Of a stretch of 26,649 bases of DNA, positions 105-23,794 are shown piece by piece. The position numbers were made by a program, and so were the translations under genes. The DNA is from a virus (lineage: Duplodnaviria; Heunggongvirae; Uroviricota; Caudoviricetes): IMG/VR virus record IMGVR_UViG_2778261572_000013, positions 1 to 26,649 of that record. One strand, given 5' to 3'. Positions within the stretch are counted from its first letter, which is position 1; each line of letters begins with the position of its first letter. The notes below the pieces were generated by a model. That model was not told the DNA's origin. It saw only the letters and a list, made by a program, of their open reading frames with translations, and did no database searches.

Positions 105-1157
105 TTACGGGGTAATGCCAACCGCTGCCGCCACTTTGTCGCCACTTGGCAGCGTTGCCAGAGGATTGAAACGGAGCGCCGTTTCCAGATGATCTGGTGC
201 CAGATGTGCGTAACGCATAGTCATTTTTATATCGTGGTGTCCGAGAATTTTTTGTAAGGCGAGAATGTTTCCACCCGACATCATGAAGTGCGCCGCAAAC
301 GTATGGCGCAGAACGTGTGTGAGTTGACCGCGAGGGAGCACGATAGACGTTTTTTCCATCACGGATAAAAATTGAAAATAGCAGTCTGTAAAGAAATTGA
401 ACCCATCAAGCGCCATGATCTCTTCGTAAAGCTCTTTACTGATAGGGATGCTTCTGTTTTTCTTCCCCTTCGTTCTGACAAAGGTAATTCGGTATTTGGT
501 CACCTGTGAGCGGGTAAGATTTACGGCTTCACGCCAGCGTGCACCTGTGCTTAAGCATATCTTAACTACCAGTGCCAGAATTGGGTCCTGACGTTTGCAA
601 TCAGCCAGCAATTCAACAATCTGCTCATGGGTAAGCCATGCCATCTCTTTTTCTGCGATGGTGAATTTTCGCATGTTCTCCAGTGGGTTCGGATACGACC
701 ATTCGCCCAGACGGGATAGTTCGCTAAAAACACTACTTAGATAGCTTTGCTCCAGGTTAATGGTGACCGGGCTTGCTCCTTTCTTCCATTTCTCGCTGAA
801 GTAGATCTCGCCTGTCAGGCGTTTATCTCGATAGTGGGCAAACATTTTAGAGGTGAGATCGGTTGCAAGAGGATTGCCCAGAGCGTCAACCATCAACAGC
901 AATTTGTCATAGACATGCTGCCCAGCTGTCAGAGATTTACCATGTAGTTTGAACCATAGCTCAACCACGTCTTTCAGTGTTCGACGATCCACTGATTCAC
1001 CCAGCCAGGGCTTTGCTTCGGTTTCTTCCATCGTGTGGCGCTCAAAAGCCAGAGCTTCGCCTTTGGTGGCGAATTGTTTACGCACCCGACGCCCACTACG
1101 TCCGGCGGGGTAACATTCGCAAAGCCATTTTCCTGTGGTGAGTTTTCGTACTGCCAT
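105..1157 (-). CDS. int: Tyrosine recombinase / phage integrase (P2 Int-like)
   Basis: 350-aa ORF. C-terminal HxxR...H...Y catalytic region (LTHVLRHTFAAHFMMSGGNILALQKILGHHDIKMTMRYAHL) is typical of tyrosine integrases; first gene of the prophage as in P2. Confidence 0.93.
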   Translation of the reverse strand: MAVRKLTTGKWLCECYPAGRSGRRVRKQFATKGEALAFERHTMEETEAKPWLGESVDRRTLKDVVELWFKLHGKSLTAGQHVYDKLLLMVDALGNPLATDLTSKMFAHYRDKRLTGEIYFSEKWKKGASPVTINLEQSYLSSVFSELSRLGEWSYPNPLENMRKFTIAEKEMAWLTHEQIVELLADCKRQDPILALVVKICLSTGARWREAVNLTRSQVTKYRITFVRTKGKKNRSIPISKELYEEIMALDGFNFFTDCYFQFLSVMEKTSIVLPRGQLTHVLRHTFAAHFMMSGGNILALQKILGHHDIKMTMRYAHLAPDHLETALRFNPLATLPSGDKVAAAVGITP

Positions 1158-1230
1158 AAAAAAGCCCTCATGTCAGAGGGCTAAATTTAACTGTATGTTT
1201 GACCAGTGGTCAATGTATGTAAATATTAAA

Positions 1231-3000
1231 TCATACGTCAGGGGTAATCCAGTCGACTAAAGCCTCAATACTTTCGAAATCTGCACAGATATCTGAAAGA
1301 GGTTGTGTATCTGCTTTTGTTTTGAAATCAGCCCATACTGATTCATTTTTTTCTGTAAGACCCAAATGGTTTTCTATCGAACCATTTAGCCAAATCCAAA
1401 TATTTGCATTTCTCAGTTTTGCGGCTAATGATGACAAAAATTCTCTGGCGCCGGGCTTTTGAGACATAATAGCAAATGCTTCAGCTGCGGTAGTGTTACT
1501 ACCCTTTGTAGGCAAACCGGATCCATCGAGAGTGCATTCTCCATTAGCATGCATACTTCTCAAGATTTCTTTTAGTCGTAAAATATCCTCGTCATTATGT
1601 TCTAAGAAGTTGTTCCTTATTGCACCGCGGAACGCAAAATCTAAATCAACAATTGCTTTTGTAGGTATATCCATTGAATTTAGAATTTGCATCGTTTTAG
1701 ATATACTTTCAACGGACCCTGTTTCAATTAGTGCTATTTGCATCTGACCTAATGTTTTATTTTTAACTTTGTTAAAAATAAATGGGAGCAGAGTAGTCTC
1801 TGTTTTACCTTCTGTTAGTATTACATTGTTAGCAAACAAAACTTTTGAAGACTGTGTTAATGAAAATAAATGGGTTGCTTGTGCTGGTCGTTGTTCGATT
1901 ACTTTATTGACTGCTTCTTTTAATGTTAATCTGCAATGAGTGCCACGCTGACTGTTTTTTCTGATTAACACAGTGTCTTTTGCTAAGTCAGAGGTAATCA
2001 TTTGAGATGAATGGGTAGAGAAAATTATTTGATATCCATGATGAGATAGTGTTTTTAGAGATTCTCTAATTTGTTCGATAGCAAATGGGTGAAGATATAA
2101 CTCAGGTTCATCTATTAACAGTAGAGTAGTTGTTTTAATATCATCACCGTTGGTTATATCAGCTAAATGTCTTATTAGAGCCATCTGAATCGAACGCTGT
2201 GTGCCATGACCATAAGAAGAACAGTCACGAGCAATGCCGGGAAATGAATCTTCATATACTTTTACAGTCCCTGATTTAAATATATCCTTGAAGTCAGGGA
2301 GTTCGAAGTGTAGTTTTAAACTTATCCCAGGGAAGAAATCAGCAACTTTACTACTTATTGAATCATCAATATCATTGAGGTCCGATATTCGTTTATTACC
2401 GGTTGCAGTCATTCTTCTATTAACGGCATTTAAATGGCTTAGTATCCTTTGAGTGTGCTTCTCTTCTATTTTGCAACTCAATTCTGCCAGCAACTTACCT
2501 ATTGTAGTTCCTGTTTTTGATTTTGAAGAATCATCCGCTGCATTTTCCATTGCACCTATACGTATTGGGTCTGGAAATAAAGCTTTTATCGCATTCTCAA
2601 TACCCGTTGGTGATGTCCTGAATTCGTTATTTTCTGGGTTTTTAATTAATAATCTGACGTCTTTTGCACTTTGAGCACCAACAGGCTGTTGACGTTTAAA
2701 TATCAATACCCCATCAATAATGTAGGGTGAAATTCTAGTTCTGTTTTCTTCTGTTAAAGCTGACAAAATATCTTCAGTAATACCCTTAACTGTACCTATA
2801 ACTTCTATAGGGTTATCTGGATTAGTATAATCATCAGAGGACAAAAGTTTTTTCTTAAAAAGCCATTCAATAGCATTTAAAATCGTTGACTTACCAGCAT
2901 TGTTGTAACCGATTAAAGGCGTGAATGAAGAAAAATTGATATCAATATCTTTGCAAGATCTAAAGTTTTTTATAGAAATCTTTGAAAGATGATGATTCAT
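1231..3000 (-). CDS. OLD-family ATP-dependent endonuclease (ABC-type ATPase N-terminus plus Toprim C-terminus)
   Basis: 589 aa. Walker A GYNNAGKST, signature-like HGTQRS, Walker B LLLIDEPELYLHP, H-loop FSTHS, then Toprim-like E (ILTEGKTE) and DxD (VDLDFA). Size matches P2 Old (586 aa). AT-rich relative to the phage core. No adjacent helicase gene. Confidence 0.75.
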   Translation of the reverse strand: MNHHLSKISIKNFRSCKDIDINFSSFTPLIGYNNAGKSTILNAIEWLFKKKLLSSDDYTNPDNPIEVIGTVKGITEDILSALTEENRTRISPYIIDGVLIFKRQQPVGAQSAKDVRLLIKNPENNEFRTSPTGIENAIKALFPDPIRIGAMENAADDSSKSKTGTTIGKLLAELSCKIEEKHTQRILSHLNAVNRRMTATGNKRISDLNDIDDSISSKVADFFPGISLKLHFELPDFKDIFKSGTVKVYEDSFPGIARDCSSYGHGTQRSIQMALIRHLADITNGDDIKTTTLLLIDEPELYLHPFAIEQIRESLKTLSHHGYQIIFSTHSSQMITSDLAKDTVLIRKNSQRGTHCRLTLKEAVNKVIEQRPAQATHLFSLTQSSKVLFANNVILTEGKTETTLLPFIFNKVKNKTLGQMQIALIETGSVESISKTMQILNSMDIPTKAIVDLDFAFRGAIRNNFLEHNDEDILRLKEILRSMHANGECTLDGSGLPTKGSNTTAAEAFAIMSQKPGAREFLSSLAAKLRNANIWIWLNGSIENHLGLTEKNESVWADFKTKADTQPLSDICADFESIEALVDWITPDV

Positions 3001-3043
3001 TTTAGACTCCTCCAGTAAGTATTTAAAAGTAATGTCTGCAATG

Positions 3044-3982
3044 TTATTGTATTGTTAAGATAATGCTGGCTATAATTTGAATATCCTCAATGGAACACTC
3101 AAAATCCTTACTCCCACCAGAAACAAGAATTTTGTTCTTAGGTAAACGAGTTAACTCTTTTAAAGATAACTCATTGTCAATTCCTACTAACCATTTTCCA
3201 TCTCTAATTAGGTGAAATTCTTTATCACATATGACATGTTTTTCTCCATTGCTTACAAACATCAAGCTGCTAGTTTCTTGCTTCGGAAGTAGACACCGAT
3301 CCATGGATAAAAAACCTGACTCGACAAGCACGCCATTGACCAAATTGAACTTATTTAAAATTACAGTGTTTTCTTCTTGTGAACTATTTGGTGTTTCGAT
3401 TCCTGTAACTAGCCAGGCGAGATCCGCTTTGGTTTCTAATGCGCATTTAATCACCCAATCCGCAGGGAAAGAATCTCGCATGTATCGTGTGGCTAATGTG
3501 CTTTTTGAAATACCAAGGTGGTCGGCTAAGGCTTGGCGGGTTTTAAACCCGTAAGCATTAACAATCCTCTCTATCGCGGCTTTTCCTCCGTTAGTAAGCT
3601 CAATGTGATTCTCAATGCGGCGCTTAAAGGATGATTGATGAGCGTTGCTGTTAAACCCCTCATGTGGGACTGTTTCATCATGTTGTTCCACATAAGGGGG
3701 GAAACTTTCTTCTGCATTGTTAGAACCAAAGGCCAGCCATTCTAGGGATGCGCCAGTTTCCATTGAACATATAACAACCCAATCAGCAGGGAAGGTATCG
3801 CGTGCATATCTATTAGCCATTGTGCTTTGTGAAATACCAAGATGCTTACAGAAGGCTTGGCGTGATTTGAAACCATAGGCCTTGAGTATCCTCTCAATGA
3901 CTTTTTGCCCTCCACGATTCTGCATGACCATAGCTTTCAGACTATCTTCAATATGGCGAAATGTGATTTTTTGAGTTGACAT
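3044..3982 (-). CDS. 186 CI-like immunity repressor with tandemly duplicated N-terminal DNA-binding domain
   Basis: 312 aa. Residues about 29-85 and 137-193 are paralogous (IERI.AYGFK.RQA..HLGIS.ST.A.RY.RD.FPADWV..C..ET.A.L.WL), resembling the phage CI repressor N-terminal domain. Divergent from the cox/cII operon, as expected for the repressor. Confidence 0.7.
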   Translation of the reverse strand: MSTQKITFRHIEDSLKAMVMQNRGGQKVIERILKAYGFKSRQAFCKHLGISQSTMANRYARDTFPADWVVICSMETGASLEWLAFGSNNAEESFPPYVEQHDETVPHEGFNSNAHQSSFKRRIENHIELTNGGKAAIERIVNAYGFKTRQALADHLGISKSTLATRYMRDSFPADWVIKCALETKADLAWLVTGIETPNSSQEENTVILNKFNLVNGVLVESGFLSMDRCLLPKQETSSLMFVSNGEKHVICDKEFHLIRDGKWLVGIDNELSLKELTRLPKNKILVSGGSKDFECSIEDIQIIASIILTIQ

Positions 3983-4069
3983 ATTCTTTATGTGAACCTA
4001 TTCTCCGTTTTGTGATGTTTTGTCACGATTAATACCGGCTCACCACAAGCCAATAGGAGATGTTGCATC
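3983..4069. promoter_or_regulatory. Divergent promoter/operator region of the immunity switch
   Basis: Lies between the leftward repressor gene and the rightward early operon; contains the direct repeat GTTTTGTGA/GTTTTGTCA and an RBS (GGAG) for the 4070 ORF. Confidence 0.5.
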
Positions 4070-4291
4070 ATGACCCCTAACATTTCAATAACTCTGAATA
4101 CGCCACACGTCACAATTGAGCGTTATAGCGAACTTACTGGTCTTTCTATCGACACCATCAACGATATGCTGGCTGATGGTCGTATCCCTCGCCATCGCCT
4201 TCGGAAAGACAAGAAAAGAGAAAAGGTAATGATCAACCTTGCTGCTCTTACCGTTGATGCACTTACTGATTGCAATGTTGTATTCAACTAG
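4070..4291 (+). CDS. Small DNA-binding protein, Cox/Apl-like (excisionase/switch regulator) candidate
   Basis: 73-aa basic protein, first gene of the rightward early operon, with an HTH-like segment ([25 protein letters not shown]). Assigned by position and size only. Confidence 0.5.
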
Positions 4292-4323: not shown

Positions 4324-4833
4324 ATGTTTGATTACCAAGTTTCCAAACATCCACATTTTGATGAAGCCTGTCGTGCATTTGCATTGCGCCACAACTTGGT
4401 GCAACTGGCAGAACGTGCAGGTATGAATGTGCAGATTCTGCGGAACAAGCTGAATCCAGCTCAACCTCATTTATTAACCGCACCAGAAATTTGGTTGCTT
4501 ACTGATCTGACAGAAGACTCAACACTGGTAGATGGTTTTCTGGCACAGATTCACTGCCTGCCATGTGTTCCGATTAATGAGGTGGCAAAAGAGAAACTGC
4601 CGCATTACGTCATGAGTGCAACAGCAGAGATCGGGCGTGTAGCTGCAGGCGCGGTATCTGGCGATGTAAAAACCAGTGCAGGCCGTCGTGATGCTATCAG
4701 CAGCATTAACTCTGTAACACGACTGATGGCGTTGGCTGCTGTTTCATTGCAGGCCCGTTTACAGGCTAACCCTGCGATGGCGAGTGCAGTTGATACCGTG
4801 ACTGGCCTCGGTGCTTCATTTGGTTTGCTGTGA
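4324..4833 (+). CDS. Phage regulatory protein CII-like (186 CII/CP76 family)
   Basis: 169 aa starting at MFDYQV with an AGGAG RBS 5 nt upstream; position after the apl-like gene as in 186. Family assignment is from memory of the CP76-type sequence, not verified. Confidence 0.55.
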
Positions 4834-4992
4834 GGTGCTTATGCTGACGAAAGAACCATCATTTGCATCGCTGCTGGTAAAATAAAGCCCGGCAATGCAC
4901 TACGGTCACGGCTGGATCATGGGAGAGGATGGTAAACGCTGGCATCCATGTCATTCACAAGATGAATTGCTGTCTGAATTGACCACGAGAAA

Positions 4993-5232
4993 ATGGAGAA
5001 AGTCCAAATGTATGCGGCAGAAAGTGAAGTGGTTTATCAGTTTCGTTACAGAGGGGAGAGTTATTCAGTACCTGAAGATGATTTGCTCTGTTGCTATCCG
5101 TCGTTGTCGGGCGATGGTAGCTACTTTTTCACGCTAAAGGATGGAACCTTTATACGTGGTGAAAAAGTACAAGAAGTGATGCGTATAAAGACATCACCTC
5201 TTGAACGTTATCGGCGAAGTATTTATCGGTAA
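4993..5232 (+). CDS. Hypothetical early protein
   Basis: 79-aa ORF (alternative ATG at 5008 preceded by GGAG). No recognisable motif. Confidence 0.4.
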   Translation: MEKVQMYAAESEVVYQFRYRGESYSVPEDDLLCCYPSLSGDGSYFFTLKDGTFIRGEKVQEVMRIKTSPLERYRRSIYR

Positions 5233-5471
5233 CGATCTATCAGTGTCTGTATCAGATGAGTGAATTCTTGTTGTTTAACCGAACCTAAAGGAAGTTTGTT
5301 TAATTCTTCGCGGAGGAGCTCAAAAAATGCAGATTGATTTGCTGAGTCAGTTCGAAATAAGGAGTGGATCAGACCTGAAACAAGAATTCGTTGAACTGCA
5401 ACCTCATCGCGAAGACTGGAGATCTCGTTTTCAAGTTGCTCTAAACGCTCTCTTTCAACCGGGTTCAACAT
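5223..5471 (-). CDS. Hypothetical coiled-coil protein encoded antisense to the early operon
   Basis: 82 aa with a good RBS (GAAGGAA 7 nt upstream of ATG) and coherent helical sequence; overlaps the 3' end of the 4993-5232 ORF by 10 bp, convergently. Confidence 0.45.
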   Translation of the reverse strand: MLNPVERERLEQLENEISSLRDEVAVQRILVSGLIHSLFRTDSANQSAFFELLREELNKLPLGSVKQQEFTHLIQTLIDRYR

Positions 5472-5552: not shown

Positions 5553-5894
5553 ATGGCTATTGAAGGCGCTGCGGCGACTGTTCCATTAAGTCCCGGTGAA
5601 CGCCTGAATGGACTTAATCACATAGCGGAATTAAGGGCGAAAGTTTTTGGCCTGAATATTGAGTCAGAGCTTGAGCGGTTTATTAAAGATATGCGTGATC
5701 CACGGGATATCAATAATGAACAAAATAAACGGGCACTGGCTGCCATATTCTTTATGGCAAAAATTCCAGCTGAACGTCATAGCATCAGCATTAATGAGCT
5801 GACCACTGACGAAAAGCGGGAGCTGATTAAAGCAATGAATCATTTTCGTGCAGTGGTGAGCTTATTTCCCAGACGGCTAACCATGCCGAATTAA
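5553..5894 (+). CDS. Hypothetical early protein
   Basis: 113-aa ORF in the early operon; weak RBS. Confidence 0.45.
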   Translation: MAIEGAAATVPLSPGERLNGLNHIAELRAKVFGLNIESELERFIKDMRDPRDINNEQNKRALAAIFFMAKIPAERHSISINELTTDEKRELIKAMNHFRAVVSLFPRRLTMPN

Positions 5895-5961
5895 CCAACT
5901 AATGAAATTAATGGCGTAAACCCGCCGGGCATCCCTTTATCTAAATTCAGGAGAATTGATT

Positions 5962-6195
5962 ATGCGTAATATTGAAATCCTCACGACTAAAACCGGACCG
6001 GATGACGCAGGGCTTAATATTTTACTGACAGAGGCTCGTCTGGAAGAACGTCGGGCAAGGGCTGAAGCAATGGCAGCTCGCCTTGATAGCCTGGCGTGTC
6101 ATATCACATCCCGCCAGCTAAACCACGTCGAAGCGGCAGAACTGCTGCGTGTAACTGCTGAAGCAATCCAGAACGAAGCGCAGGAGATCCACTAA
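5962..6195 (+). CDS. Hypothetical early protein
   Basis: 77 aa from ATG 5962 with AGGAGAA RBS; its stop overlaps the next start (TAATG). Confidence 0.5.
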   Translation: MRNIEILTTKTGPDDAGLNILLTEARLEERRARAEAMAARLDSLACHITSRQLNHVEAAELLRVTAEAIQNEAQEIH

Positions 6196-6422
6196 TGGCT
6201 GATGCAATGGATCTCGTACAGCAGCGCGTTGAAGAAGAACACCAGCGCCATATTCGTGCTGCCCGTGCCAAAACACCGGGCGTGTCTCGCGTGCTTTGTA
6301 TTGAATGTGAAGCGCCAATTCCGCCAGCACGACGCCGCGCCATTCCGGGAGTGCAGCTTTGCATTACCTGCCAGGAAATCGCAGAGCTGAAAGGCAAACA
6401 TTACAACGGAGGTGCTGTATGA
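6195..6422 (+). CDS. TraR/DksA-family C4 zinc-finger protein
   Basis: 75 aa with CxxC...CxxC (CIECEAPIP...CITCQ) in the arrangement typical of phage TraR/DksA-like proteins. Confidence 0.7.
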
Positions 6423-6721
6423 CAAGGGCAGTGCGTATCCATCAATTAAAAATTGCACCTAAGTATTTCAACGCTGTGGTTGCAGGTCAAAAGACGGCTG
6501 AACTTCGTAAAGACGATCGTGGCTATAAAGTTGGTGATGTTCTTTCTCTTTGCGAATGGAAGCATGGCGTATTTACGGGTAGGGAATGGGCCGCTGTTAT
6601 CTCTCATGTGCTTCCGGTTAATGACGTCATGGCAGTTTCAGAACAATGGGTGATGCTATCAATTCGCCCATTAACCCCATTAGAAGCTTTAGGATATGTT
6701 ATTGCAGGAGGTGCTGTATGA
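6419..6721 (+). CDS. DUF3850/ASCH-like small protein
   Basis: 100 aa from ATG 6419 (overlaps upstream stop, ATGA). Family assignment from recalled similarity, moderate. Confidence 0.5.
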
Positions 6722-7575
6722 GTACCATCCTGAAATGGGCGGGTAATAAAACTGCCATTATGTCCGAACTGAAAAAACATCTTCCTGCTGGCCCGCGACT
6801 GGTTGAACCTTTCGCGGGTTCCTTTGCTGTGATGATGGAGACGGATTACCCCAGCTATCTTGTTGCGGATATTAATCCTGATTTAATCAACCTCTATAAA
6901 AAGGTTGCTGCTGATTGCGAGGCGTTTATATCTCGTGCCAGAGCTTTATTTGAGGAAGCAAACAGGGAGTTGGCTTATTACAACATAAGGCAGGAGTTTA
7001 ATTACTCCACTGAAATTACTGATTTCATGAAAGCGGTATATTTCCTGTATCTCAATCGTCATGGTTACCGTGGGTTATGTCGTTATAACAAGAGCGGGCA
7101 TTTCAACATTCCATACGGTAATTATAAAAATCCGTATTTCCCTGAAAAAGAAATTCGCGCATTTGCAGAGAAAGCCCAGCGAGCAACGTTTATCTGCGCC
7201 AGCTTTGATGAAACGCTGGCGATGCTGCAGGTGGGGGATGTGGTGTATTGCGATCCGCCTTATGACGGTACGTTTTCCGGCTATCACACTGACGGCTTCA
7301 CTGAAGATGACCAGTATCACCTGGCATCTGTTCTTGAATATCGATCATCAGAAGGTCATCCAGTCATTGTTTCTAACAGTGACACATCCCTGATCCGTTC
7401 GCTGTATCGAAATTTCACTCACCACTACATCAAGGCAAAACGCAGCATCGGCGTAGCAGCTGGTGAGAGTAAATCTGCAACAGAAATCATCGCTGTTTCT
7501 GGGGCGCGCTGCTGGGTGGGATTTGATCCTTCGCGTGGCGTGGATAGTTCTGCCGTGTACGGAGTGCGTGCATGA
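6718..7575 (+). CDS. dam: DNA adenine methyltransferase (Dam/D12-class N6-MTase), orphan
   Basis: 285 aa from ATG 6718 (AGGAGG RBS). N-terminal KWAGNK AdoMet motif and catalytic DPPY motif. No partner restriction enzyme nearby. Confidence 0.85.
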
Positions 7576-9986: not shown

Positions 9987-10078
9987 TTACGCGGGTTAAC
10001 AATTCGTGCTCTTAATAATACCAGGCATATCAGGCTGATGAACGTAAAAAAACGTTTTACATCAGTAAGATTATTATA

Positions 10079-10098
10079 TACTGTAAATATAAACAGTG
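10079..10098. promoter_or_regulatory. LexA (SOS) box
   Basis: taCTGTaaatataaACAGtg matches the CTGT-N8-ACAG consensus, with promoter-like hexamers just upstream, about 45 bp before the 10140 ORF. Confidence 0.7.
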
Positions 10099-10139
10099 GT
10101 TATATATACAGTATTGCTTGTGGTGTCATAGGAGGAAAG

Positions 10140-10328: not shown

Positions 10329-10338
10329 GGGGACTTTT

Positions 10339-13484: not shown

Positions 13485-13516
13485 AAAGCCAAGTCAGTGT
13501 TAACTGACTTGGCTTT
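13485..13516. terminator. Bidirectional hairpin terminator between cassette 2 and portal gene
   Basis: Perfect 14-bp inverted repeat AAAGCCAAGTCAGT-gtta-ACTGACTTGGCTTT flanked by T/A runs, between convergent genes. Confidence 0.7.
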
Positions 13517-13518
13517 AA

Positions 13519-15236: not shown

Positions 15237-16070
15237 ATGACAGTGAAAGCAAAGCGTTTTCGCATCGGGGTGGAAGGTGCCACCACCGACGGACGCGAAA
15301 TCCAGCGTGAATGGCTGGAACAGATGGCAGCCAGCTACAACCCGGCGGTGTATACCGCGCTGATTAACCTTGAGCACATCAAGTCTTATCTGCCGGACAG
15401 CACCTTTAACCGCTACGGCAAGGTGACGGCGCTGTTTGCTGAAGAAATCACGGAGGGTCCGCTGGCGGGCAAGATGGCACTGTATGCCGACGTTGAGCCA
15501 ACGGAGTCCCTGGTGGAACTGGTGAAAAAAGGCCAGAAATTATTCACCTCTATGGAAGTCAGCCCGAAGTTTGCTGATACGGGCAAAGCCTACCTGGTCG
15601 GCCTGGCAGCCACTGATGACCCAGCCAGTCTGGGTACGGAAATGCTGACATTCAGCGCCAGCGCAGCCCATAACCCGCTGGCAAACCGCAAGCAGAATCC
15701 CGCCAATCTCTTTACCGCCGCAGAGGAAACGGTGATCGAACTGGAAGAAATCCAGGATGACAAACCGTCCCTGTTTGCCCGTGTCACGGCGCTGTTTACA
15801 AAAAAAGAGCAGTCCGACGATGCCCGGTTTTCTGATGTGCATAAGGCCGTGGAACTGGTCGCCACTGAGCAGCAAAACCTGAGTGTGCGCACCGAAAAAT
15901 CCCTTTCTGAGCAGGAAGAACGTCTGTCTGAGCTGGAGACAGTTCTGCAGGCACAACAGGCCGCCTTTAACGAACTGGTGGACAAGCTGAGCCATGAAGA
16001 CAGCCGCCAGGACTACCGCCAGCGTGCAACGGGCGGTAACGCCCCCGCTGACACTCTGACCAATTGCTGA
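15237..16070 (+). CDS. O: Capsid scaffolding protein (P2 gpO-like)
   Basis: 277 aa (P2 O is about 284 aa), first gene of the rightward head operon, GGAG RBS. Confidence 0.8.
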   Translation: MTVKAKRFRIGVEGATTDGREIQREWLEQMAASYNPAVYTALINLEHIKSYLPDSTFNRYGKVTALFAEEITEGPLAGKMALYADVEPTESLVELVKKGQKLFTSMEVSPKFADTGKAYLVGLAATDDPASLGTEMLTFSASAAHNPLANRKQNPANLFTAAEETVIELEEIQDDKPSLFARVTALFTKKEQSDDARFSDVHKAVELVATEQQNLSVRTEKSLSEQEERLSELETVLQAQQAAFNELVDKLSHEDSRQDYRQRATGGNAPADTLTNC

Positions 16071-16086
16071 TGGAGCACAAAACCTG

Positions 16087-17145
16087 ATGAAGAAGAATAC
16101 CCGCTTTGCTTTTAACGCTTACCTGCAGCAGCTGGCGCGTCTGAACGGTGTGGCAGTTGAAGAACTGTCCAGCAAGTTCACCGTGGAGCCGTCTGTACAG
16201 CAGACGCTGGAAGACCAGATCCAGCAGTCCGCCGCTTTCCTGACGCTGATTAACGTCACGCCAGTGACTGAGCAGTCCGGTCAGCTGCTGGGGCTGGGTG
16301 TTGGCAGCACCATTGCCGGAACCACTGACACCACCGCGAAAGAGCGTGAACCTGTCGATCCGACGCTGATGGTCGATGTGGAATACAAATGCGAACAGAC
16401 CAACTTTGACACAGTGCTGACCTACGCGAAGCTGGACCTGTGGGCGAAGTTTCAGGATTTCCAGGTGCGTATCCGTAACGCCATTGTGAAACGTCAGGCA
16501 CTGGACCGCATCATGATCGGCTTTAACGGCGTGAAGCGTGCGAAAACCTCCAACCGCAGCGAAAACCCGCTGCTGCAGGATGTGAACAAAGGCTGGTTGC
16601 AGAAAATCCGTGAGGATGCACCGGATCACGTCATGGGCACCACCACCACGGGCGGTGAAACCACACCGGGTGCGGTGAAAGTCGGGAAAGGTGGCGAATA
16701 TGCCAACCTGGACGCCGTAGTGATGGATGCCGTCAATGAGCTTATCGACGTGGTCTACCAGGACGATGATGATCTGGTGGTGATTTGCGGTCGTGAACTG
16801 CTGTCTGACAAGTACTTCCCGCTGGTCAATAAAGAGCAGGAAAACAGTGAAAAACTGGCTGCCGATATGATCATCAGTCAGAAACGCATGGGTGGCCTGC
16901 AGGCCGTGCGTGCGCCGTTCTTCCCGCCGAATGCGCTGCTGATCACCCGTCTGGATAACCTGTCCATCTACTGGCAGGAAGATACCCGCCGCCGTTCAGT
17001 TATCGACAACCCGAAACGTGACCGGATTGAAAATTTTGAATCCGTTAACGAAGCCTATGTGGTTGAGGACTATCGCTGCGCTGCACTGGTGGAAAACATC
17101 CAGATTGGTGACTTCAGCGCCGCCGCAGCAGAAACCGGAGCGTAA
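16087..17145 (+). CDS. N: Major capsid protein (P2 gpN-like)
   Basis: 352 aa, follows O; size and order as P2 N. Confidence 0.8.
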   Translation: MKKNTRFAFNAYLQQLARLNGVAVEELSSKFTVEPSVQQTLEDQIQQSAAFLTLINVTPVTEQSGQLLGLGVGSTIAGTTDTTAKEREPVDPTLMVDVEYKCEQTNFDTVLTYAKLDLWAKFQDFQVRIRNAIVKRQALDRIMIGFNGVKRAKTSNRSENPLLQDVNKGWLQKIREDAPDHVMGTTTTGGETTPGAVKVGKGGEYANLDAVVMDAVNELIDVVYQDDDDLVVICGRELLSDKYFPLVNKEQENSEKLAADMIISQKRMGGLQAVRAPFFPPNALLITRLDNLSIYWQEDTRRRSVIDNPKRDRIENFESVNEAYVVEDYRCAALVENIQIGDFSAAAAETGA

Positions 17146-17148
17146 TTC

Positions 17149-17799
17149 ATGAGCCTGAGTCCCGCACGGCAGCATCGCCTGCGCGTTCAGGCTGAACAGG
17201 CCGCTCGCGAGGGTGGCAGTGTTCGCCACGCGTCGGGCTATGACCTGATGCTGCTGCAACTGGCGGAAGACCGCCGCCGTCTCAAGGGCGTTCAGTCCAC
17301 GGTCAAAAAAGCGGAAATCAAGGTGGAGCTGCTGCCGAAATATGCCGCCTGGGCGGAGGGCGTTCTGGCTGCCGGAGGCGCTCAACAGGATGACGTGCTG
17401 ATGTACGTGATGCTGTGGCGCATTGATGCCGGAGATTATGCCGGGGCGCTGGAGATCGGGCGTCATGCCCTGCGTCATGGCTGGGTGATACCGCTGGGTA
17501 ACCGCAACGTGCAGACCGTGCTGGCAGAGGAAATGGCAGACGCGGCGCAGAGCGCAATGCTTGCCGCCACCGGCTTTGATGCCGATCTGTTGCTGCAGAC
17601 GCTGGAGCTGACAGACGGTCTGGATATGCCGGACCAGTCACGGGCGCGTCTGCATAAAGCGATTGGCGCTGTCCTGAGTGAAAGCAATCCGGCGTCTGCC
17701 CTTAATCATCTCAACCATGCGTTACAGCTCGATCCCCGCTGTGGCGTGAAAAAAGACAAACAGCAGCTGGAGCGCAGACTGCGCAATGACAGCCGCTGA
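17149..17799 (+). CDS. M: Terminase endonuclease/small subunit (P2 gpM-like)
   Basis: 216 aa, follows N; order as in P2. Confidence 0.7.
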   Translation: MSLSPARQHRLRVQAEQAAREGGSVRHASGYDLMLLQLAEDRRRLKGVQSTVKKAEIKVELLPKYAAWAEGVLAAGGAQQDDVLMYVMLWRIDAGDYAGALEIGRHALRHGWVIPLGNRNVQTVLAEEMADAAQSAMLAATGFDADLLLQTLELTDGLDMPDQSRARLHKAIGAVLSESNPASALNHLNHALQLDPRCGVKKDKQQLERRLRNDSR

Positions 17800-17894
17800 C
17801 AGAACGTGCCCCCGCGCACGGGCGGCACGGGGTGGCGAAAGGCATAGCCACATCAAAATCCCGTTCACCGCCCTCTATTTCAGGAGAAAGCAGC

Positions 17895-18125
17895 ATGAAG
17901 TTTGTTGCGCCAGAACAGGCACCGGAACAGGCGGAAATCATCAGAAATACGCCGTTCTGGCCTGATGTGGACCTGTCGGAGTTTCGCAGCGTGATGCGCA
18001 CTGACGGCACGGTGACGCAGCCGCGTTTAAAGCAGGTTGCCCTGTCTGGACCGACGGCATTGGTAATACGTCGGGCGTCATTCCCGGCAAAACCATTACG
18101 GAGCGACAGGCAGCAGAAGGGCTGA
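17895..18125 (+). CDS. L: Head completion protein gpL-like, probably 3'-truncated
   Basis: ATG 17895 with AGGAGAAAG RBS; only 76 codons (P2 L is about 169 aa); frame is lost where lysozyme-like sequence begins in another frame. Confidence 0.4.
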   Translation: MKFVAPEQAPEQAEIIRNTPFWPDVDLSEFRSVMRTDGTVTQPRLKQVALSGPTALVIRRASFPAKPLRSDRQQKG

Positions 18126-18397
18126 TCTCCAACGTGCTGCGTGTGGAGCGGGCGCTGGAAAGGTGTGTGAAGCAACAGCCGCCGCAGAAGGTGTATGACG
18201 CTGCGGTGTCGTTTGCCTTCAACGTGGGTACGGGCAATGCCTGCAGTTCCACGCTGGTGAAATTGCTCAATCAGCGGCGCTGGGCGGATGCGTGCCGACA
18301 GTTGCCGCGCTGGGTGTATGTAAAAGGTGTGTTTAATCAGGGGCTGGATAACCGCCGTGCACGGGAGATGGCCTGGTGCTTACAGGGAGCAAACTGA
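18005..18397 (+). pseudogene. K: Phage lysozyme (gpK-like, GH24 family) lacking the N-terminal catalytic region
   Basis: Frame-2 open stretch encodes CPVWTDGIGNTSG...GKTITERQAAEGL...SFAFNVGTGN...RRW..., matching the middle and C-terminus of lambda/P21-type lysozymes; no in-frame N-terminus with the catalytic Glu upstream. Confidence 0.55.
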
Positions 18398-18398
18398 A

Positions 18399-18836
18399 AT
18401 GAAAAAGAAAGTAATCAGCGGACTGTTTCTGATGTTATGGATGGCGCTGTTAATCGCAGCAATGGTGTATCCGCAGGGGATTTTTCCGGTACTGGCAGCG
18501 TCCGGTGTCTGGGTAGCCTGTCTGCTGACATGGGGGGCAATTCCGGTAGCACTGGTTGCGTTAATTAAGAACGGCCCGCTCTGGCAGGAGTTGAGGGCAT
18601 CTTTGCTGAAGAGCATTACCCGAAAAGAAAACGTATTTATCAGCTGGATGATGCGATTGCTGATTGTCGTAAGTCTCGCCTGGACGGGGTGGGCTATTAC
18701 CCTGGTCTTTTATCTGCTGACCGTTATCGCCACCATTTTTCACTGGCCGCCATCCGTTACTGACGTTATGCCGCTGACCGAAGTGCTGGAATGGCGGTAT
18801 AAAGCGATTCAGAGAAGCGGGGACAACGATGAGTGA
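18399..18836 (+). CDS. Small membrane protein, LysA-like candidate
   Basis: 145 aa with four hydrophobic segments, RBS AGGGAG, immediately after the lysozyme remnant as P2 lysA follows K. Its stop overlaps the T start. Confidence 0.4.
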   Translation: MKKKVISGLFLMLWMALLIAAMVYPQGIFPVLAASGVWVACLLTWGAIPVALVALIKNGPLWQELRASLLKSITRKENVFISWMMRLLIVVSLAWTGWAITLVFYLLTVIATIFHWPPSVTDVMPLTEVLEWRYKAIQRSGDNDE

Positions 18837-21800
18837 TAACAACCTGCGGCTGCAGGTCATTCTTAATGCGGTTGACAAACTCACCCGCCCATTCCGTGCT
18901 GCACAGGCCAGTTCGAAAGAGCTGGCTGGCGCAATCAGAAACTCCCGTGACGCATTAAAGCAACTCAATCAGGCGGGTAACAGCCTGGAAAAATTTCGCA
19001 AGCTGCAGGCCGATAACAAGAAGTTAGGCGACAGGCTGAACTATGCCAGACAGAAGGCTAATTTACTTAGCTCTGAGCTGGAGTCGATGGAACAACCATC
19101 ACAACGGCACCTTGTGGCTTTAGGTCGGCAAACGCTGGCAGTCCAACGCCTGGAAGAACAACAAAAATATTTGCAGAAGCAAACGGCGCTTGTGCGTGCA
19201 GAACTGTACCGGGCGGGAATTTCTGCGAAAGATGATGCGGGAGCAACTGCCCGTTTAGCCCGTGAAACATCACGTTATAACCAGGAATTGTCGCAACAGG
19301 AGGCGAGGCTGAAGCGACTGGGGGAAGCTCAGCGCAGGATGAATGCAGCGCGTGCCAGTTATGCCCGTTCGCTGGAGGTGCGTGATCGTATTGCAGGTGT
19401 TGGAGCCACCACCACGGCTGCAGGGCTGGCAATGGGCGCACCAGTGATGGCGGCAGTAAAAAGCTATACCAGCATGGAAGATGCTATGAAAGGTGTGGCA
19501 AAGCAGGTCAATGGTCTGCGTGACGATAATGGCAACCGCACTGCACGTTTTTATGAAATGCAGGATGCCATCAAGGCTGCCAGCGAACAGTTGCCGATGG
19601 AAAACGGTGCGGTGGACTTCGCTGCACTGGTTGAAGGTGGTGCGCGCATGAACGTCGCAAACCCTGACGACAGCTGGGAAGACCAGAAACGTGATCTGCT
19701 GGCCTTCGCCAGCACGGCAGCAAAGGCGGCAACAGCCTTTGAGCTGCCAGCGGATGAACTGTCAGAAAGTCTGGGTAAAATCGCCCAGCTCTACAAAATC
19801 CCTACCCGCAATATTGAACAGCTCGGTGATGCGCTGAACTATCTGGATGATAACGCCATGTCGAAAGGGGCAGACATCATTGATGTCATGCAACGCCTGG
19901 GCGGTGTGGCTGATCGTCTGGATTATCGTAAAGCGGCGGCGCTGGGTTCCACCTTCCTGACACTGGGTGCTGCGCCGGAGGTTGCAGCCAGTGCAGCAAA
20001 CGCGATGGTGCGTGAATTGTCCATTGCCACCATGCAAAGCAAGAGTTTCTTTGAAGGAATGAATCTGCTGAAACTCAATCCTGAAGTGATTGAAAAGCAG
20101 ATGACGAAGGATGCGATGGGAACCATCCAGCGCGTGCTGGAGAAGGTGAACGCACTGCCACAGGACAAGCGTCTGTCTGCCATGACCATGTTGTTTGGTA
20201 AAGAGTTTGGTGATGACGCGGCGAAACTGGCAAACAACCTTCCGGAACTGCAGCGCCAGCTAAAACTGACAGCGGGCAATGATGCGCTCGGTTCCATGCA
20301 GAAAGAATCCGACATCAACAAAGACTCACTTTCTGCTCAGTGGTTGCTGGTCAAAACCGGAGCGCAGAACACCTTCAGCAGCCTGGGCGAAACGCTGCGC
20401 CAGCCGCTGATGGATATTCTGTACACGGTGAAAAGCATCACGGGGGCGTTGCGCCGCTGGGTGGAAGCTAACCCGGAACTGACAGGCACACTGGTGAAAG
20501 TAGCGGCTGTTGTGGCTGCGGTTACCGTTGGCCTCGGCACCTTAGCGGTGGCGCTGGCTGCAGTGCTGGGGCCGCTGGCAGTGATTCGTCTGGGATTCTC
20601 TGTGCTGGGTATCAAAACGTTACCTTCCGTTACGGCAGCAGTAACCCGAACCAGCAGCGCGTTGTCCTGGCTGGCTGGCGCACCACTGGCACTGCTGCGA
20701 CGCGGGCTTGCTTCATCGGGCAACGCCGCAGGTTTACTTACTGCGCCGTTGTCGTCTTTGCGCCGCACGGCATTACTGACGGGAAATGTCCTGAAAACTG
20801 TAGCAGGTGCGCCGGTTGCACTTTTGCGGTCTGGATTATCCGGTTTACGTGCTGTTGCTGTGATGTTTATGAATCCTCTGGCGGTACTGCGCGGTGGACT
20901 GGCCGCCGCAGGCACGGTGCTGCGAGTACTGGCATCTGGTCCACTGGCGATGCTGCGCGTTGCCCTGTATGCCGTATCTGGTCTGTTAGGTGCTCTGCTC
21001 AGTCCGATAGGTCTTGTGGTTACTGCACTGGCGGGCGTGGCGCTGGTTGTCTGGAAATACTGGCAACCCATCACCGCATTTCTTGGTGGCGTGGTGGAAG
21101 GATTCAAAGCGGCGGCAGGTCCCGTCAGTGAAGCATTCGAACCGCTTAAGCCCGTGTTCCAGTGGATTGGCGACAAAGTACAGGCGCTGTGGGGCTGGTT
21201 TACTGATCTGCTGACGCCCGTTAAGTCGACCTCTGCCGAACTGCAGAGTGCAGCGGCAATGGGGCGACGATTCGGGGAGGCACTGGCGGAAGGGCTAAAT
21301 ATGGTCATGCATCCGCTGGACTCCCTGAAATCCGGCGTTTCCTGGTTGCTGGAGAAGCTCGGCATTGTCAGTAAAGAGGCCGCAAAGGCAAAACTGCCGG
21401 AAAGCGTGACGCGTCAGCAACCTGCGACGGTGAATGCAGACGGTAAAGTGATGATGCCATCGGGTGGTTTTCCATCATGGGGATATGGCTTTGCGGGGAT
21501 GTATGACAGCGGCGGGTATATCCCGCGCGGGCAGTTTGGCATCGTCGGTGAAAACGGGCCGGAAATTGTTAACGGCCCGGCAAATGTGACCAGCCGGAGA
21601 AATACAGCTGCACTGGCTGCCGTTGTTACCGGAATGATGGGCGTTGCTGCCGCGCCTGCAGAGCTTCCACCGTTGCACCCTTTGGCACTTCCCGCGAAAG
21701 GTGGAGAAGCAATTGTGAGTCGCGCAGCCACTGTGCCGCCCGTTTACAGGATTGAGGCACCGACGCAGATCATCATCCAGACGCAGCCAGGACAAAGTGC

Positions 21801-21906
21801 GCAGGATATTGCGCGGGAGGTGGCCCGCCAGCTTGATGAACGTGAACGCAGGCTGAAGGCAAAGGCCAGGAGTAACTACAGCGATCAGGGGGGATACGAC
21901 GCATGA
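18829..21906 (+). CDS. T: Tail tape measure protein (P2 gpT-like)
   Basis: 1025 aa; N-terminal coiled-coil region, central Gly/Ala-rich hydrophobic repeats (xPLAxLRxGL units); followed by U and D as in P2. Confidence 0.8.
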   Translation: MSDNNLRLQVILNAVDKLTRPFRAAQASSKELAGAIRNSRDALKQLNQAGNSLEKFRKLQADNKKLGDRLNYARQKANLLSSELESMEQPSQRHLVALGRQTLAVQRLEEQQKYLQKQTALVRAELYRAGISAKDDAGATARLARETSRYNQELSQQEARLKRLGEAQRRMNAARASYARSLEVRDRIAGVGATTTAAGLAMGAPVMAAVKSYTSMEDAMKGVAKQVNGLRDDNGNRTARFYEMQDAIKAASEQLPMENGAVDFAALVEGGARMNVANPDDSWEDQKRDLLAFASTAAKAATAFELPADELSESLGKIAQLYKIPTRNIEQLGDALNYLDDNAMSKGADIIDVMQRLGGVADRLDYRKAAALGSTFLTLGAAPEVAASAANAMVRELSIATMQSKSFFEGMNLLKLNPEVIEKQMTKDAMGTIQRVLEKVNALPQDKRLSAMTMLFGKEFGDDAAKLANNLPELQRQLKLTAGNDALGSMQKESDINKDSLSAQWLLVKTGAQNTFSSLGETLRQPLMDILYTVKSITGALRRWVEANPELTGTLVKVAAVVAAVTVGLGTLAVALAAVLGPLAVIRLGFSVLGIKTLPSVTAAVTRTSSALSWLAGAPLALLRRGLASSGNAAGLLTAPLSSLRRTALLTGNVLKTVAGAPVALLRSGLSGLRAVAVMFMNPLAVLRGGLAAAGTVLRVLASGPLAMLRVALYAVSGLLGALLSPIGLVVTALAGVALVVWKYWQPITAFLGGVVEGFKAAAGPVSEAFEPLKPVFQWIGDKVQALWGWFTDLLTPVKSTSAELQSAAAMGRRFGEALAEGLNMVMHPLDSLKSGVSWLLEKLGIVSKEAAKAKLPESVTRQQPATVNADGKVMMPSGGFPSWGYGFAGMYDSGGYIPRGQFGIVGENGPEIVNGPANVTSRRNTAALAAVVTGMMGVAAAPAELPPLHPLALPAKGGEAIVSRAATVPPVYRIEAPTQIIIQTQPGQSAQDIAREVARQLDERERRLKAKARSNYSDQGGYDA

Positions 21907-22388
21907 TGATGGTGCTGGGATTGTACGTGTTTATGCTGCGCACCGTGCCGTATCAGGAACTGCAGTATCAGCGCAGCTGGCGACATGCGGCTAACAGCCG
22001 GGTAAATCGTCGTCCGTCCACGCAGTTTCTGGGACCGGACAACGACATGCTGACGCTTTCCGGTGTTCTTATGCCGGAGATAACAGGCGGCAGGCTGTCG
22101 TTGCTGGCACTGGAGCAGATGGCAGAACAGGGGAAAGCATGGCCTCTGATTGAAGGCAGCGGCACGATTTACGGCATGTATGTGATTGAGGGACTGAATC
22201 AGACTAAAACGGAGTTTTTCCGCGACGGTATGCCGCGCCGGATTGAGTTCACCCTGTCGCTCAAACGGGTGGATGAATCCCTGTCCGATATGTTCGGTGA
22301 TCTCAGTGCGCAGCTGAATAATCTGCAGGGAGCGGCAACATCAGCCTTAAGCGATATCAGTAAAACGGTGGGAGGGCTTCTGTCGTGA
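21903..22388 (+). CDS. U: Tail protein gpU-like
   Basis: 161 aa (P2 U is about 159 aa), overlaps the T stop, precedes D. Confidence 0.75.
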   Translation: MMMVLGLYVFMLRTVPYQELQYQRSWRHAANSRVNRRPSTQFLGPDNDMLTLSGVLMPEITGGRLSLLALEQMAEQGKAWPLIEGSGTIYGMYVIEGLNQTKTEFFRDGMPRRIEFTLSLKRVDESLSDMFGDLSAQLNNLQGAATSALSDISKTVGGLLS

Positions 22389-23485
22389 ATTTCAGCTCTG
22401 AACTGCTTAACAAAGGCAACAAAACTCCGGCATTCAGCATCAGTATTGAAGGCAGGGATATCACCACTGTGCCGGACAACCGCCTGATGGGGCTGACGCT
22501 GACGGATAACCGGGGATTTGAAGCGGACCAGCTTGATCTGGAGCTGGACGACGCCGATGGAAAAATCGTGCTGCCGCGCCGTGGTGCGGTCATTACGCTG
22601 GCGCTGGGCTGGAAGGGGCAGCCGCTTTTCCCGAAAGGGGCATTCACGGTGGACGAGATTGAACACACTGGCGCACCGGACCGCCTGACTATCCGGGCGC
22701 GAAGTGCTGATTTTCGGGAAACCCTGAATACCCGCCGTGAAAAATCTTGGCACAAGACCACCGTCGGGGAAGTGGTAAAGGAAATAGCCGCGCGTCACAA
22801 GCTGAAGATGGCGCTGGGTAAAGACCTGTCGGATAAGCCCGTGGAACATATAGACCAGACTAATGAGAGTGACGGCAGTTTTCTGATGCGGCTGGCGCGA
22901 CAGTACGGTGCCATCGCGTCGGTGAAAAATGGCAATCTGCTATTCATCCGGCAGGGGCAGGGCAAAAGCGCCACTGGTAAACCACTGCCAGTGATCACTA
23001 TCACACGCAAGGACGGCGACAGTCACCGCTTTACCCTGGCAGATCGCGGAGCCTACACGGGCGTAATTGCCAGCTGGTTGCATACCCGCGAACCTGCGAA
23101 GAAAGAAAGCACCACGGTGAAGCGTAAGCGCAGAACTAAGAAGCAGAAGAAAGAGCCAGAAGCGAAGCAGGGCGATTACCTGGTGGGTACGGATGAAAAC
23201 GTGCTGGTACTTAATCGCACTTATGCCAACCGGAGCAACGCCGAACGAGCGGCGAAAATGCAGTGGGAACGCCTGCAACGCGGCGTTGCGTCATTCTCGC
23301 TACAACTGGCAGAAGGGCGGGCAGATCTCTACACGGAAATGCCAGTGAAAGTCAGTGGCTTTAAACAGCCGATAGATGATGCGGAATGGACCATTACGAC
23401 TCTGACGCATACCGTCAGCCCGGATAACGGTTTTACGACCAGTCTGGAGCTTGAAGTGAGGATTGATGATTTCGAAATGGAATGA
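22385..23485 (+). CDS. D: Tail protein / late control gene D-like
   Basis: 366 aa (P2 D is about 387 aa), position between U and ogr. Confidence 0.75.
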   Translation: MNFSSELLNKGNKTPAFSISIEGRDITTVPDNRLMGLTLTDNRGFEADQLDLELDDADGKIVLPRRGAVITLALGWKGQPLFPKGAFTVDEIEHTGAPDRLTIRARSADFRETLNTRREKSWHKTTVGEVVKEIAARHKLKMALGKDLSDKPVEHIDQTNESDGSFLMRLARQYGAIASVKNGNLLFIRQGQGKSATGKPLPVITITRKDGDSHRFTLADRGAYTGVIASWLHTREPAKKESTTVKRKRRTKKQKKEPEAKQGDYLVGTDENVLVLNRTYANRSNAERAAKMQWERLQRGVASFSLQLAEGRADLYTEMPVKVSGFKQPIDDAEWTITTLTHTVSPDNGFTTSLELEVRIDDFEME

Positions 23486-23575
23486 TTCTTCGCAATGGAG
23501 AACTTTTAAGTTTGCAAAATGGAATAATGCGGTATCATTATTGTGAATTTAGCAAAAATGGGGAGAACTCGAAAA

Positions 23576-23794
23576 ATGATGATTTGCCCACTGTGTGGAA
23601 GTGCCGCCCATACTCGCAGCAGTTTTCAGGTATCTTCATTGACCAAAGAGCGTTACAACCAGTGCCAGAACATTAACTGCAGCCATACTTTTGTTACCCA
23701 TGAAACTTTTGTTCGTTCGATTGCAACGCCAAAAGAGTCAAATCCGGTTCAGCCGCATCCAATGAAATCAGGACAGGTGGCGCTCTCTCTTTGA
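23576..23794 (+). CDS. ogr: Ogr-type zinc-finger late-gene transcription activator
   Basis: MMICPLCGSAAHTRSS...KERYNQCQNINCSHTF... closely parallels P2 Ogr (MFHCPLCQHAAH...KERYHQCQNVNCSATF); last prophage gene before attR, as in P2. Confidence 0.9.
   Translation: MMICPLCGSAAHTRSSFQVSSLTKERYNQCQNINCSHTFVTHETFVRSIATPKESNPVQPHPMKSGQVALSL

Follow-up and report, generated by a model that had tools for sequence, protein, structure and literature searches.

Three late-region deletions in a defective P2/186-like prophage of Escherichia coli with full-length hotspot cargo

Introduction

When a temperate phage has lost the means to make particles, does the host keep the remnant for its cargo, or is it a broken phage that still carries what its intact relatives carry? 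This question is raised by a stretch of 26,649 nucleotides (IMG/VR record IMGVR_UViG_2778261572_000013, positions 1 to 26,649), the whole of which we call the window. Positions 5-23885 hold a 23.9-kb P2/186-like prophage of Escherichia coli, integrated between rcdA and ybjL. A sequence-only reading of this DNA had described a decayed prophage that retains integration, immunity, replication and three accessory islands, and had read the pattern as a sign of selection for the cargo, with the element domesticated as a defence island. Our analysis supports the description rather than the explanation. We consider it quite likely that the element is a defective temperate phage of the P2/186 group (Peduoviridae), derived from an ancestor of ~35.7 kb by three microhomology deletions in the late region, and that selection on its cargo is possible but undemonstrated. 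The kind of element is already known: this is one more defective P2-like prophage whose hotspot cargo is intact.

The general pattern of cryptic-prophage decay is reported to have been described by Bobay et al. in PNAS in 2014. Incomplete prophages preferentially lose packaging and release genes and keep the integrase (PMC7744054). At scale, conserved defence genes have been reported in defective P2-like elements, with domestication left open (PMC13586616, section 29).

Results

The element and its boundaries

The genes to the right of the element, ybjL, ybjM and grxA, belong to the E. coli chromosome, and the stretch 23790-24300 is matched in 5419 of 5426 complete E. coli genomes. The ends of the element are marked by a 26-bp imperfect repeat without strand. 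The left copy, attL (5-30), has a phage-type core variant, as comparison with same-site relatives indicated, and the right copy, attR (23860-23885), has the bacterial-type core of the empty site. In genomes with an empty site the match starts at window position 23860, and the attB core became visible on aligning one of them. The interval 105-23794, from which the sequence-only reading started, runs from the first gene to the last gene and not from att to att. A tRNA scan of the window returned none, and the att site does not lie inside a tRNA.

Prophages at the same site in complete genomes are 33-37 kb long and share synteny and 96-99.9% identity with the window. Three such relatives, intact or near-intact, were used as references: L001, the closest by BLAST, L013 and L014. 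The organization of the element is that of Peduoviridae. A tyrosine integrase adjoins the att duplication that flanks the element. After a divergent repressor/Cox-Apl switch comes an early operon whose last gene encodes the gpA endonuclease, in the order of the 186 annotation. The gpQ-P/O-N-M-L cluster is recognizable in P2 order, with P and L truncated and hence not functional. The element belongs among the defective prophages, as it lacks the terminase ATPase domain, holin, spanins, baseplate, fibres, sheath and tube.

One record was considered as the window's own element and rejected. NZ_CP019257.1 (L002), a 36-kb "plasmid", matches the right flank at 100% but holds another, pseudogene-ridden prophage. 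This record appears to be a chromosomal segment reaching from a P2-like prophage to rlmC, with many frameshifted genes, and the contig was probably assembled or assigned wrongly.

Three deletions in the late region

The deletions were defined against the three reference relatives, by BLAST to L001 and inspection of the junctions. Together they account for the loss of ~12 kb of genes for packaging, lysis and the tail. Deletion a (1213 bp, junction 15149-15152, microhomology TGTC) took codons 1-386 of the terminase large-subunit gene P and most of the P-O intergenic region. What is left of P (P', 14544-15152, minus strand) is the C-terminal 202 codons with the nuclease domain, matching Pfam Terminase_6C only, whereas P of the relatives is a 588-residue protein with Terminase_5 and Terminase_6N. 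In the intergenic remnant (15153-15236, plus strand), the alignment shows that the upstream half of a TGT-N12-ACA dyad before O was replaced (TGTGTGGTTGTCGGTACA to TTCCCAGCTGTCGGTACA). We take this dyad to be the Ogr/B activator site of the O promoter, from what is known of P2 late promoters. Deletion a removed the DNA-binding and ATPase domains of P and would also have removed the P promoter and half of the O-promoter activator site. It would abolish packaging by itself, and the capsid operon O-N-M is probably silent because the upstream half of the dyad has been replaced.

Deletion b (873 bp, junction 18043-18046, microhomology of ~3-4 nt) removed the 3' end of L, X, the holin gene Y and codons 1-52 of the lysozyme gene K. 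It left a join (17895-18397, plus strand) of the first ~50 codons of the head-completion gene L to the last 118 codons of K, with X and Y absent. Deletion c is the largest (~9.7 kb, junction 18712-18731, microhomology ATYGCC). The 3' end of lysA, lysB/C, R, S, V, W, J, I, H, G, the invertase gene, FI, FII and E were lost with it, and the open reading frame (ORF) that crosses the junction (18399-18836, plus strand, 145 residues) encodes a fusion product on which Pfam LysA and Phage_P2_GpE are both found. Deletions b and c left the element without holin, part of the lysozyme, the spanins and almost the whole tail.

The remaining late genes are full length. On the minus strand, the portal gene Q (13519-14544; 341 residues; Pfam Phage_portal) is intact and as long as in intact relatives, with a ratio of non-synonymous to synonymous divergence (dN/dS) of 0.05. 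On the plus strand are the capsid scaffold gene O (15237-16070), the major capsid gene N (16087-17145) and the small terminase gene M (17149-17799), with dN/dS of 0.03-0.04, followed by the tape measure gene T (18829-21906), U (21903-22388), D (22385-23485) and the late activator gene ogr/B (23576-23794), with dN/dS of 0.03-0.10. Overall, the retained late genes show a dS of 0.097, a dN/dS of 0.06 and no indels, and their private changes are 104 synonymous and 24 non-synonymous. The truncation or deletion of packaging, lysis and tail genes that the sequence-only reading had noticed is thus accounted for by junctions a, b and c, and it does not extend to Q, O, N, M, T, U, D and ogr.

The source of the window is a draft contig (NLMV01000024.1, assembly GCA_002229415.1, 100% identical to the window), so one has to ask whether the three deletions are collapses or mis-joins of a short-read assembly. 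We find this hardly credible. An independent Logan assembly of SRR3989759 is identical over all three junctions, and junction a recurs in five other assemblies. Moreover, the junctions lie in unique sequence with just 3-6 nt of microhomology, and ORFs continue across them.

A complete left arm

The genes int, Old, cI, apl, cII, dam and A and the cargo ORFs are full length and gapless against their relatives, so that the picture of a decayed prophage keeping integration, immunity, replication and cargo holds. The integrase (105-1157, minus strand; 350 residues; Pfam Int_N and Phage_integrase) is 99.8-99.9% identical to those of L001 and L013, without gaps. The 186-type CI repressor (3044-3982, minus strand; 312 residues) matches Pfam Phage_CI_repr in two stretches, a tandem N-terminal helix-turn-helix (HTH), and Phage_CI_C. 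At the DNA level the repeat units, 3432-3589 and 3756-3913, are 70% identical. We regard the tandem-HTH form as a working variant and not a lesion, because the sole repressor of the intact prophage L013 is encoded by a CI gene with 99.8% nucleotide identity to that of the window. In another relative, L008, CI genes of 307 and 189 residues stand side by side.

A pR-like promoter is found at 3976-4004. Downstream on the plus strand, the apl/cox-like excisionase-repressor gene (4070-4291; phrog_575) and cII (4324-4833; Pfam Phage_CP76) are intact. The next gene, fil (4841-5137, plus strand), has an in-frame stop at codon 15 and is open from an internal ATG at 4895, with Pfam Phage_186_Fil on 4895-5137. 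It is annotated as a truncated pseudogene in L001 and encodes an intact 98-residue protein in L013 and L014. As L001 belongs to another host lineage, the defective allele of this cell-division inhibitor gene may have moved between hosts with infectious phage. The sequence-only reading had int, the repressor, the early operon, dam and A intact; all of these are full length apart from fil, whose stop in the early operon is the blemish on that account.

Between fil and the rest of the early operon lies an antisense moron ORF of 82 residues (orf82; 5223-5471, minus strand; phrog_26925, E = 6.5e-57) with a strong terminator at 5203-5170. It is present in L001 and L014 and absent from L013. This rest of the early operon (5553-9986, plus strand) is intact, with products assigned by Pfam to DUF5347, DUF2732, TraR/DksA, DUF3850/ASCH, Dam and A, and its genes are 99.3-100% identical to those of L014 without gaps. 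It includes the intact genes for the Dam methylase (6718-7575, plus strand) and the replication endonuclease A (7572-9986, plus strand); Phage_GPA is recorded on the identical A gene of L003. Further downstream is an SOS operon (10081-10572, plus strand), consisting of a perfect LexA box CTGTAAATATAAACAG (10081-10096, plus strand), a 62-residue ORF (10140-10328, plus strand) and a DinI-like ORF of 77 residues (10339-10572, plus strand). The DinI-like product is 41% identical to residues 71-145 of 186 Tum, its C-terminal half. Comparison of the 62-residue ORF with the N-terminus of 186 Tum found no similarity.

With att, Int, CI, Apl, CII, A and the LexA-controlled Tum/DinI-like operon, the left arm would amount to a complete 186-type lysogeny and early module. 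CI would hold the element repressed and make the host immune to phages that share its immunity type. When the SOS response induces the LexA-controlled operon, repression of the early operon could be lifted, which may allow excision by Int and Apl and A-dependent replication. With the terminase ATPase, tail, holin and spanins gone, DNA packaging, tail assembly and cell lysis should not be possible after induction.

Cargo in three variable slots

The three accessory modules had been described as AT-rich, and the base composition bears this out: GC content is 0.33-0.36 at 1501-3500, 0.40-0.44 at 10001-12000 and 0.34-0.37 at 12001-13500. Their ORFs are full length. Old, orf82, module 2 and module 3 each have a plausible terminator downstream, in line with the terminators that the sequence-only reading had pointed out.

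Module 1 occupies the int-cI slot and consists of one gene with its own terminator (1182-1163), for an Old-family ATPase-TOPRIM nuclease of 589 residues (1231-3000, minus strand). PADLOC recognized Old over residues 3-585 of 589 (E = 1.4e-234), Pfam found AAA_15, AAA_21 and OLD-like_TOPRIM, and the protein is 37% identical to P2 Old over its full length. By eye, a Walker A motif (GYNNAGKST), a Walker B motif (LLLIDEPE) and the TOPRIM motifs LTEGKTE and DLD can be seen. The ATPase and TOPRIM domains are on one protein of ~590 residues with no partner gene, as in the single-gene OLD type. In relatives, the same slot holds other cargo: HEC-01, a KAP NTPase, SNIPE or YdcA.

Module 2 (10843-11900, plus strand) encodes a 71-residue product and a predicted membrane protein of 280 residues, with a helical N-terminal half that appears to be transmembrane and an Sm/Hfq-like beta-barrel. 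One of its products, m2b, was considered as the counterpart of 186 Orf97, which has the same position; the two have no homology and the idea was dropped. Module 3 (12232-13480, plus strand) is a pair of ORFans of 154 and 257 residues in the cos-Q slot, adjoining the portal gene. The 257-residue protein has, by eye, hydrophobic N-terminal segments and a long helical region. A single-sequence AlphaFold2 model of m3a was discarded at a mean predicted local distance difference test score (pLDDT) of 47. Searches of PADLOC, Pfam and NCBIfam gave no assignment for modules 2 and 3 (for module 3, only sub-threshold matches in Pfam and NCBIfam), and module 3 has no PHROG family either. The module 3 proteins m3a and m3b fall into only 2-3 clusters among 5.8 billion proteins, from E. 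coli-like hosts and Cedecea davisae. The DNA of module 3 had no match in RefSeq complete E. coli genomes, nor had the m3b protein in phage records. The pair does occur in several intact prophages, from drafts or other assemblies. Of the three modules, Old alone is a recognized defence gene, by homology, and the other two carry no such assignment.

Modules 2 and 3 are separated by a putative cos, GGCGTGGCGGGGATACGAG (12018-12036, plus strand) followed by CGCGCGCTGTCGGT (together 12018-12050), which is similar to P2 cosL, ggcgaggcggggaaagcac tgcgcgctgacggt. In comparison with P2 cosL and its flank, 12018-12050 agrees at 12 of the first 13 nt and continues with GCGCGCTG-CGGT. A search with the P2/186 cos 19-mer allowing up to 3 mismatches gave no match, and the candidate was found with a shorter core pattern. 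A block of ~150 bp around it (11894-12045) is common to all relatives and has recombination breakpoints on both sides. Since this block divides it, the published gpA-gpQ hotspot consists of two slots here, A-cos and cos-Q.

The cargo thus lies in variable slots known from P2-like phages (int-cI, A-cos and cos-Q). It would have been inherited unchanged from a functional phage and, including Old-type exclusion, would be expressed in the lysogen from its own signals. The P2 hotspots listed in the PMC13586616 survey are gpA-gpQ, int-primase, int-att and tail. The defence content of the P2 hotspot is established, and about a third of the gene sets tested there were anti-phage systems (PMC9122126). 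Going by this hit rate for cloned P2-hotspot systems, we hold it possible, if on the doubtful side, that module 2, module 3 or both are new anti-phage systems.

Carriers of the junctions and stepwise decay

The defective form is not one that a host clade has inherited vertically, as a domesticated island might be. None of junctions a, b and c occurs in the 5426 complete E. coli genomes. Exact-protein look-up in a 153-billion-gene index found the junction-c fusion in one NCBI contig and one Logan assembly and the junction-b chimera in 3 contigs; junctions b and c are seen in one assembly and one sequencing run, essentially one clone. The junction-a P' protein was found in six contigs, which represent two element types. 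The known carriers are GCA_002229415.1, SRR3989759, ERR8651074, SRR29457349, SRR5588551 and SRR32904592. An exact 28-mer over junction a had no match in metagenome, species-representative genome and viral collections. Other "terminase-like" proteins of ~200 residues in the same 90% cluster were inspected as possible carriers and set aside: they start within native P (MVDSWEVW...) and not at junction a.

The sister isolate L020 (ERR8651074) has 0 substitutions in 6.4 kb of shared prophage and 1 in 3.9 kb of flank. It has a 6.8-kb deletion of its own, corresponding to window 16020-22784 (the 3' end of O to the 5' part of D), where 16015-16019 is joined to 22785, and it keeps Q, P', the cargo and ogr. 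As a near-identical isolate has a different late deletion, the late region was lost stepwise within one clone, and the later deletions are recent. With one single-nucleotide polymorphism (SNP) in the 10.3 kb shared with L020, this suggests that deletions in a dead late region arise or become fixed much faster than point changes.

The second element type is known from three runs (L018, L021 and L023), 99.985-100% identical to one another. It has junction a and is likewise integrated between rcdA and ybjL, in another host background. Its identity to the window is ~95% over Q-P'-O-N, with the junction at about 10577 in reverse-complemented L018. It has another integrase (339 residues), a HEC-01 candidate in the int-cI slot and other cos-Q cargo. 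Its CI is cut to an 89-residue C-terminal fragment, the fil-A segment is deleted and N is shortened; the genes from W to G and one for an acyltransferase are kept, and those from FII to D are lost. Retention of immunity and replication is therefore not a rule among junction-a elements.

As junction a is also found in a different host lineage, it is either an older deletion or arose twice. The differences in P' between the window and the L018 type are all at third codon positions, several of them common to intact phages, and the polymorphisms nearest the junction lie 36 bp to its left and 29 bp to its right. We favour, as an inference, identity of junction a by descent, with flanks overwritten by gene conversion from intact P2-like phages that stopped at the heterology, over recurrence. 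Such conversion makes low dN/dS weaker as a clock.

The distribution of junction a could also be read as movement. Elements with this junction might excise, replicate and be packaged through cos by a P2-like phage of different immunity, swapping arms on the way. The window retains att, int, apl, A, the putative cos, Q, O, N and M, and junction a does occur in two elements with different integrases, cargo and hosts, with flank polymorphisms that differ, all at third codon positions and selection-filtered. However, the L018-type carrier has no A and a truncated CI and so cannot replicate autonomously. The window element measures 24 kb, 67% of the reconstructed 35.7-kb ancestor, and has no helper-manipulation genes of the sid/psu/delta type. 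Junction a is missing from the collections searched with the 28-mer, and gene conversion stopping at a heterology boundary explains the mosaic flanks without transfer of the element. We judge helper-dependent movement very improbable.

Is the cargo under selection?

The sequence-only reading had the host keep the remnant as a domesticated defence island: Old and the other modules would protect the cell, purifying selection would act on cargo, integration and immunity, and structural genes would decay neutrally. Several observations fit. Old belongs to a genuine family of exclusion genes (PMC9122126), and the cargo sits in recognized P2 defence hotspots (PMC9122126, PMC13586616). Deletions a, b and c and that of L020 all spare the cargo (combined P about 0.06). 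The L018 type keeps all three cargo slots, including the HEC-01 candidate, while losing core genes, and the same pattern is seen at scale in the defective elements of PMC13586616, section 29.

The identity of the cargo tells a different story. It is 99.3-100% identical to copies in intact prophages. An identical m3b protein is found in at least 7 contexts (L006-L012), all with full-length P, L, X, holin, lysozyme, LysA and tail genes up to the start of J; the fetched DNA ends there, and a lysis-spanin ORF (LysB-sized or LysC) was called in each. Module 2 is also present in the intact prophage L014. Fourteen complete genomes carry the Old-CI arm (99.7-99.9% identical), and in at least 12 of these the prophage is full length, at 33-37 kb. 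The normal vehicle of this cargo is therefore a complete phage, since the same cargo and Old-CI arm sit in full-length prophages. Compared with its nearest relatives, the cargo differs by 2 synonymous and 4 non-synonymous changes, and six substitutions give no power, so that selection on the cargo is not measurable.

The positions of the deletions were compared with random placement. The simulated probability that all three would lie in the late region is 0.18, and that none would touch any cargo 0.28, so that the pattern, though real, is statistically nothing unusual. Adding the L020 deletion lowers the chance figure to about 0.04-0.06, under a null that is too simple, ignoring the lethality of cI loss with working lytic genes and the advantage of losing lysis genes. 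Holin and lysis genes are just what deletion b took out, and the same goes for the L020 deletion, provided that its parent form had not yet lost them. That the losses lean towards late genes would be most simply explained by selection against lytic functions that are lethal or useless, or by selective indifference to them, together with constraint against repressor loss.

Overall, we consider domestication rather unlikely. The cargo does not differ from that of intact phages in a way that would make selection measurable, and the forms with junctions b and c come from essentially one clone. Eight late genes of no use in defence are fully intact; at a dN/dS of 0.06 and without indels, the retained late genes are not decaying neutrally. 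The gene fil is already a pseudogene, and the L018 type has lost CI and A. A C-to-T nonsense change at L018 position 12444, one of two SNPs in 13.4 kb, splits a 324-residue cos-Q cargo gene in one of the three samples of this type. Premature stops in the cargo of related strains are the kind of observation that the sequence-only reading had itself named as telling against domestication. Finally, selection against lysis and the lethality of cI loss predict the same picture. Identical cargo in intact prophages, six uninformative changes and chance figures of P = 0.18-0.28 therefore do not bear out cargo selection as the source of the pattern.

Some points weigh on the other side, against a defective phage whose cargo needs no selection to explain it. 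All four deletions of the window clone and those of the L018 type spare every cargo slot, which leaves room for real selection on the cargo. The low dN/dS of the remnants may partly reflect gene conversion by intact P2-like phages and not recency. The role given to the dyad before O comes from the P2 literature, and excision, replication, repressor activity and cargo expression are predictions from the DNA.

Discussion

The public sequences now contain a decay series of three forms (window, L020 and L018 type), which can be used to order the steps of inactivation. The most widely shared lesion is the deletion of the terminase and promoter, which is either earliest or recurrent, and the losses of lysis and tail genes are separate and later. 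Such a series could test directly whether selection sees the cargo or the loss of killing functions. With junction a and its mosaic flanks, one can also ask to what extent the genes of dead prophages are "refreshed" by gene conversion from intact phages. If such conversion is common, low dN/dS is no evidence of function in cryptic prophages. Only three points merit a further look: the junction a common to two element types, the pair of ORFans in the cargo and the CI with its tandem HTH.

How does the element compare with known systems? P4-like satellites resemble it as small integrated elements with int, cos (putative in the window) and a cargo hotspot that make no particles of their own. Unlike them, the window has no sid, psu or delta and carries P2-type capsid, portal and replication genes. 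Each of its ORFs is either a P2/186-type gene or cargo, and O, N, M and Q are among them. The element is thus a deletion derivative of the helper type and not a member of a satellite lineage.

Among defective P2-like prophages, the survey in PMC13586616 found A, the primase/replication gene, to be the core gene most often pseudogenised, whereas A is intact in the window. Compared with the surveyed elements, decay here took the form of a few clean deletions with no point-mutational erosion.

The old and tin loci of P2 and the cos-proximal hotspot described by Rousset et al. in 2022 (PMC9122126) likewise place variable AT-rich cargo between gpA and gpQ by cos. Both P2 and the window carry an Old ATPase-TOPRIM nuclease (37% identical), but P2 Old adjoins cos and the Old of the window lies in the int-cI slot. 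In contrast to the hotspot of PMC9122126, the A-Q region of the window is two slots split by the putative cos, with occupants that are uncharacterised.

The closest likeness in gene order is to coliphage 186 (Eganvirus) and Klebsiella phage 4LV2017 (Elveevirus). Both share the order int-cI, then apl-cII-fil-...-A, the LexA-controlled tum operon, cos (putative in the window), Q-P and O-N-M-L ... T-U-D-ogr, with CI, Apl, CII and Fil of the same 186-type families. Compared with 186, CI has 312 residues with a duplicated HTH instead of 192, and the tum region consists of the 62-residue ORF and a separate DinI-like ORF instead of one Tum of 146 residues. In a comparison with window 17-23985, 4LV2017, which is recorded from Klebsiella pneumoniae, was seen to have a retron in its cos-Q slot. 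Its genome (NC_047818.1) shows 95.8% nucleotide identity over 73% of the query (window 1-25000), which points to a recent cross-genus spread of this phage lineage. What sets the window apart from both phages is its different cargo and the absence of ~12 kb of late genes.

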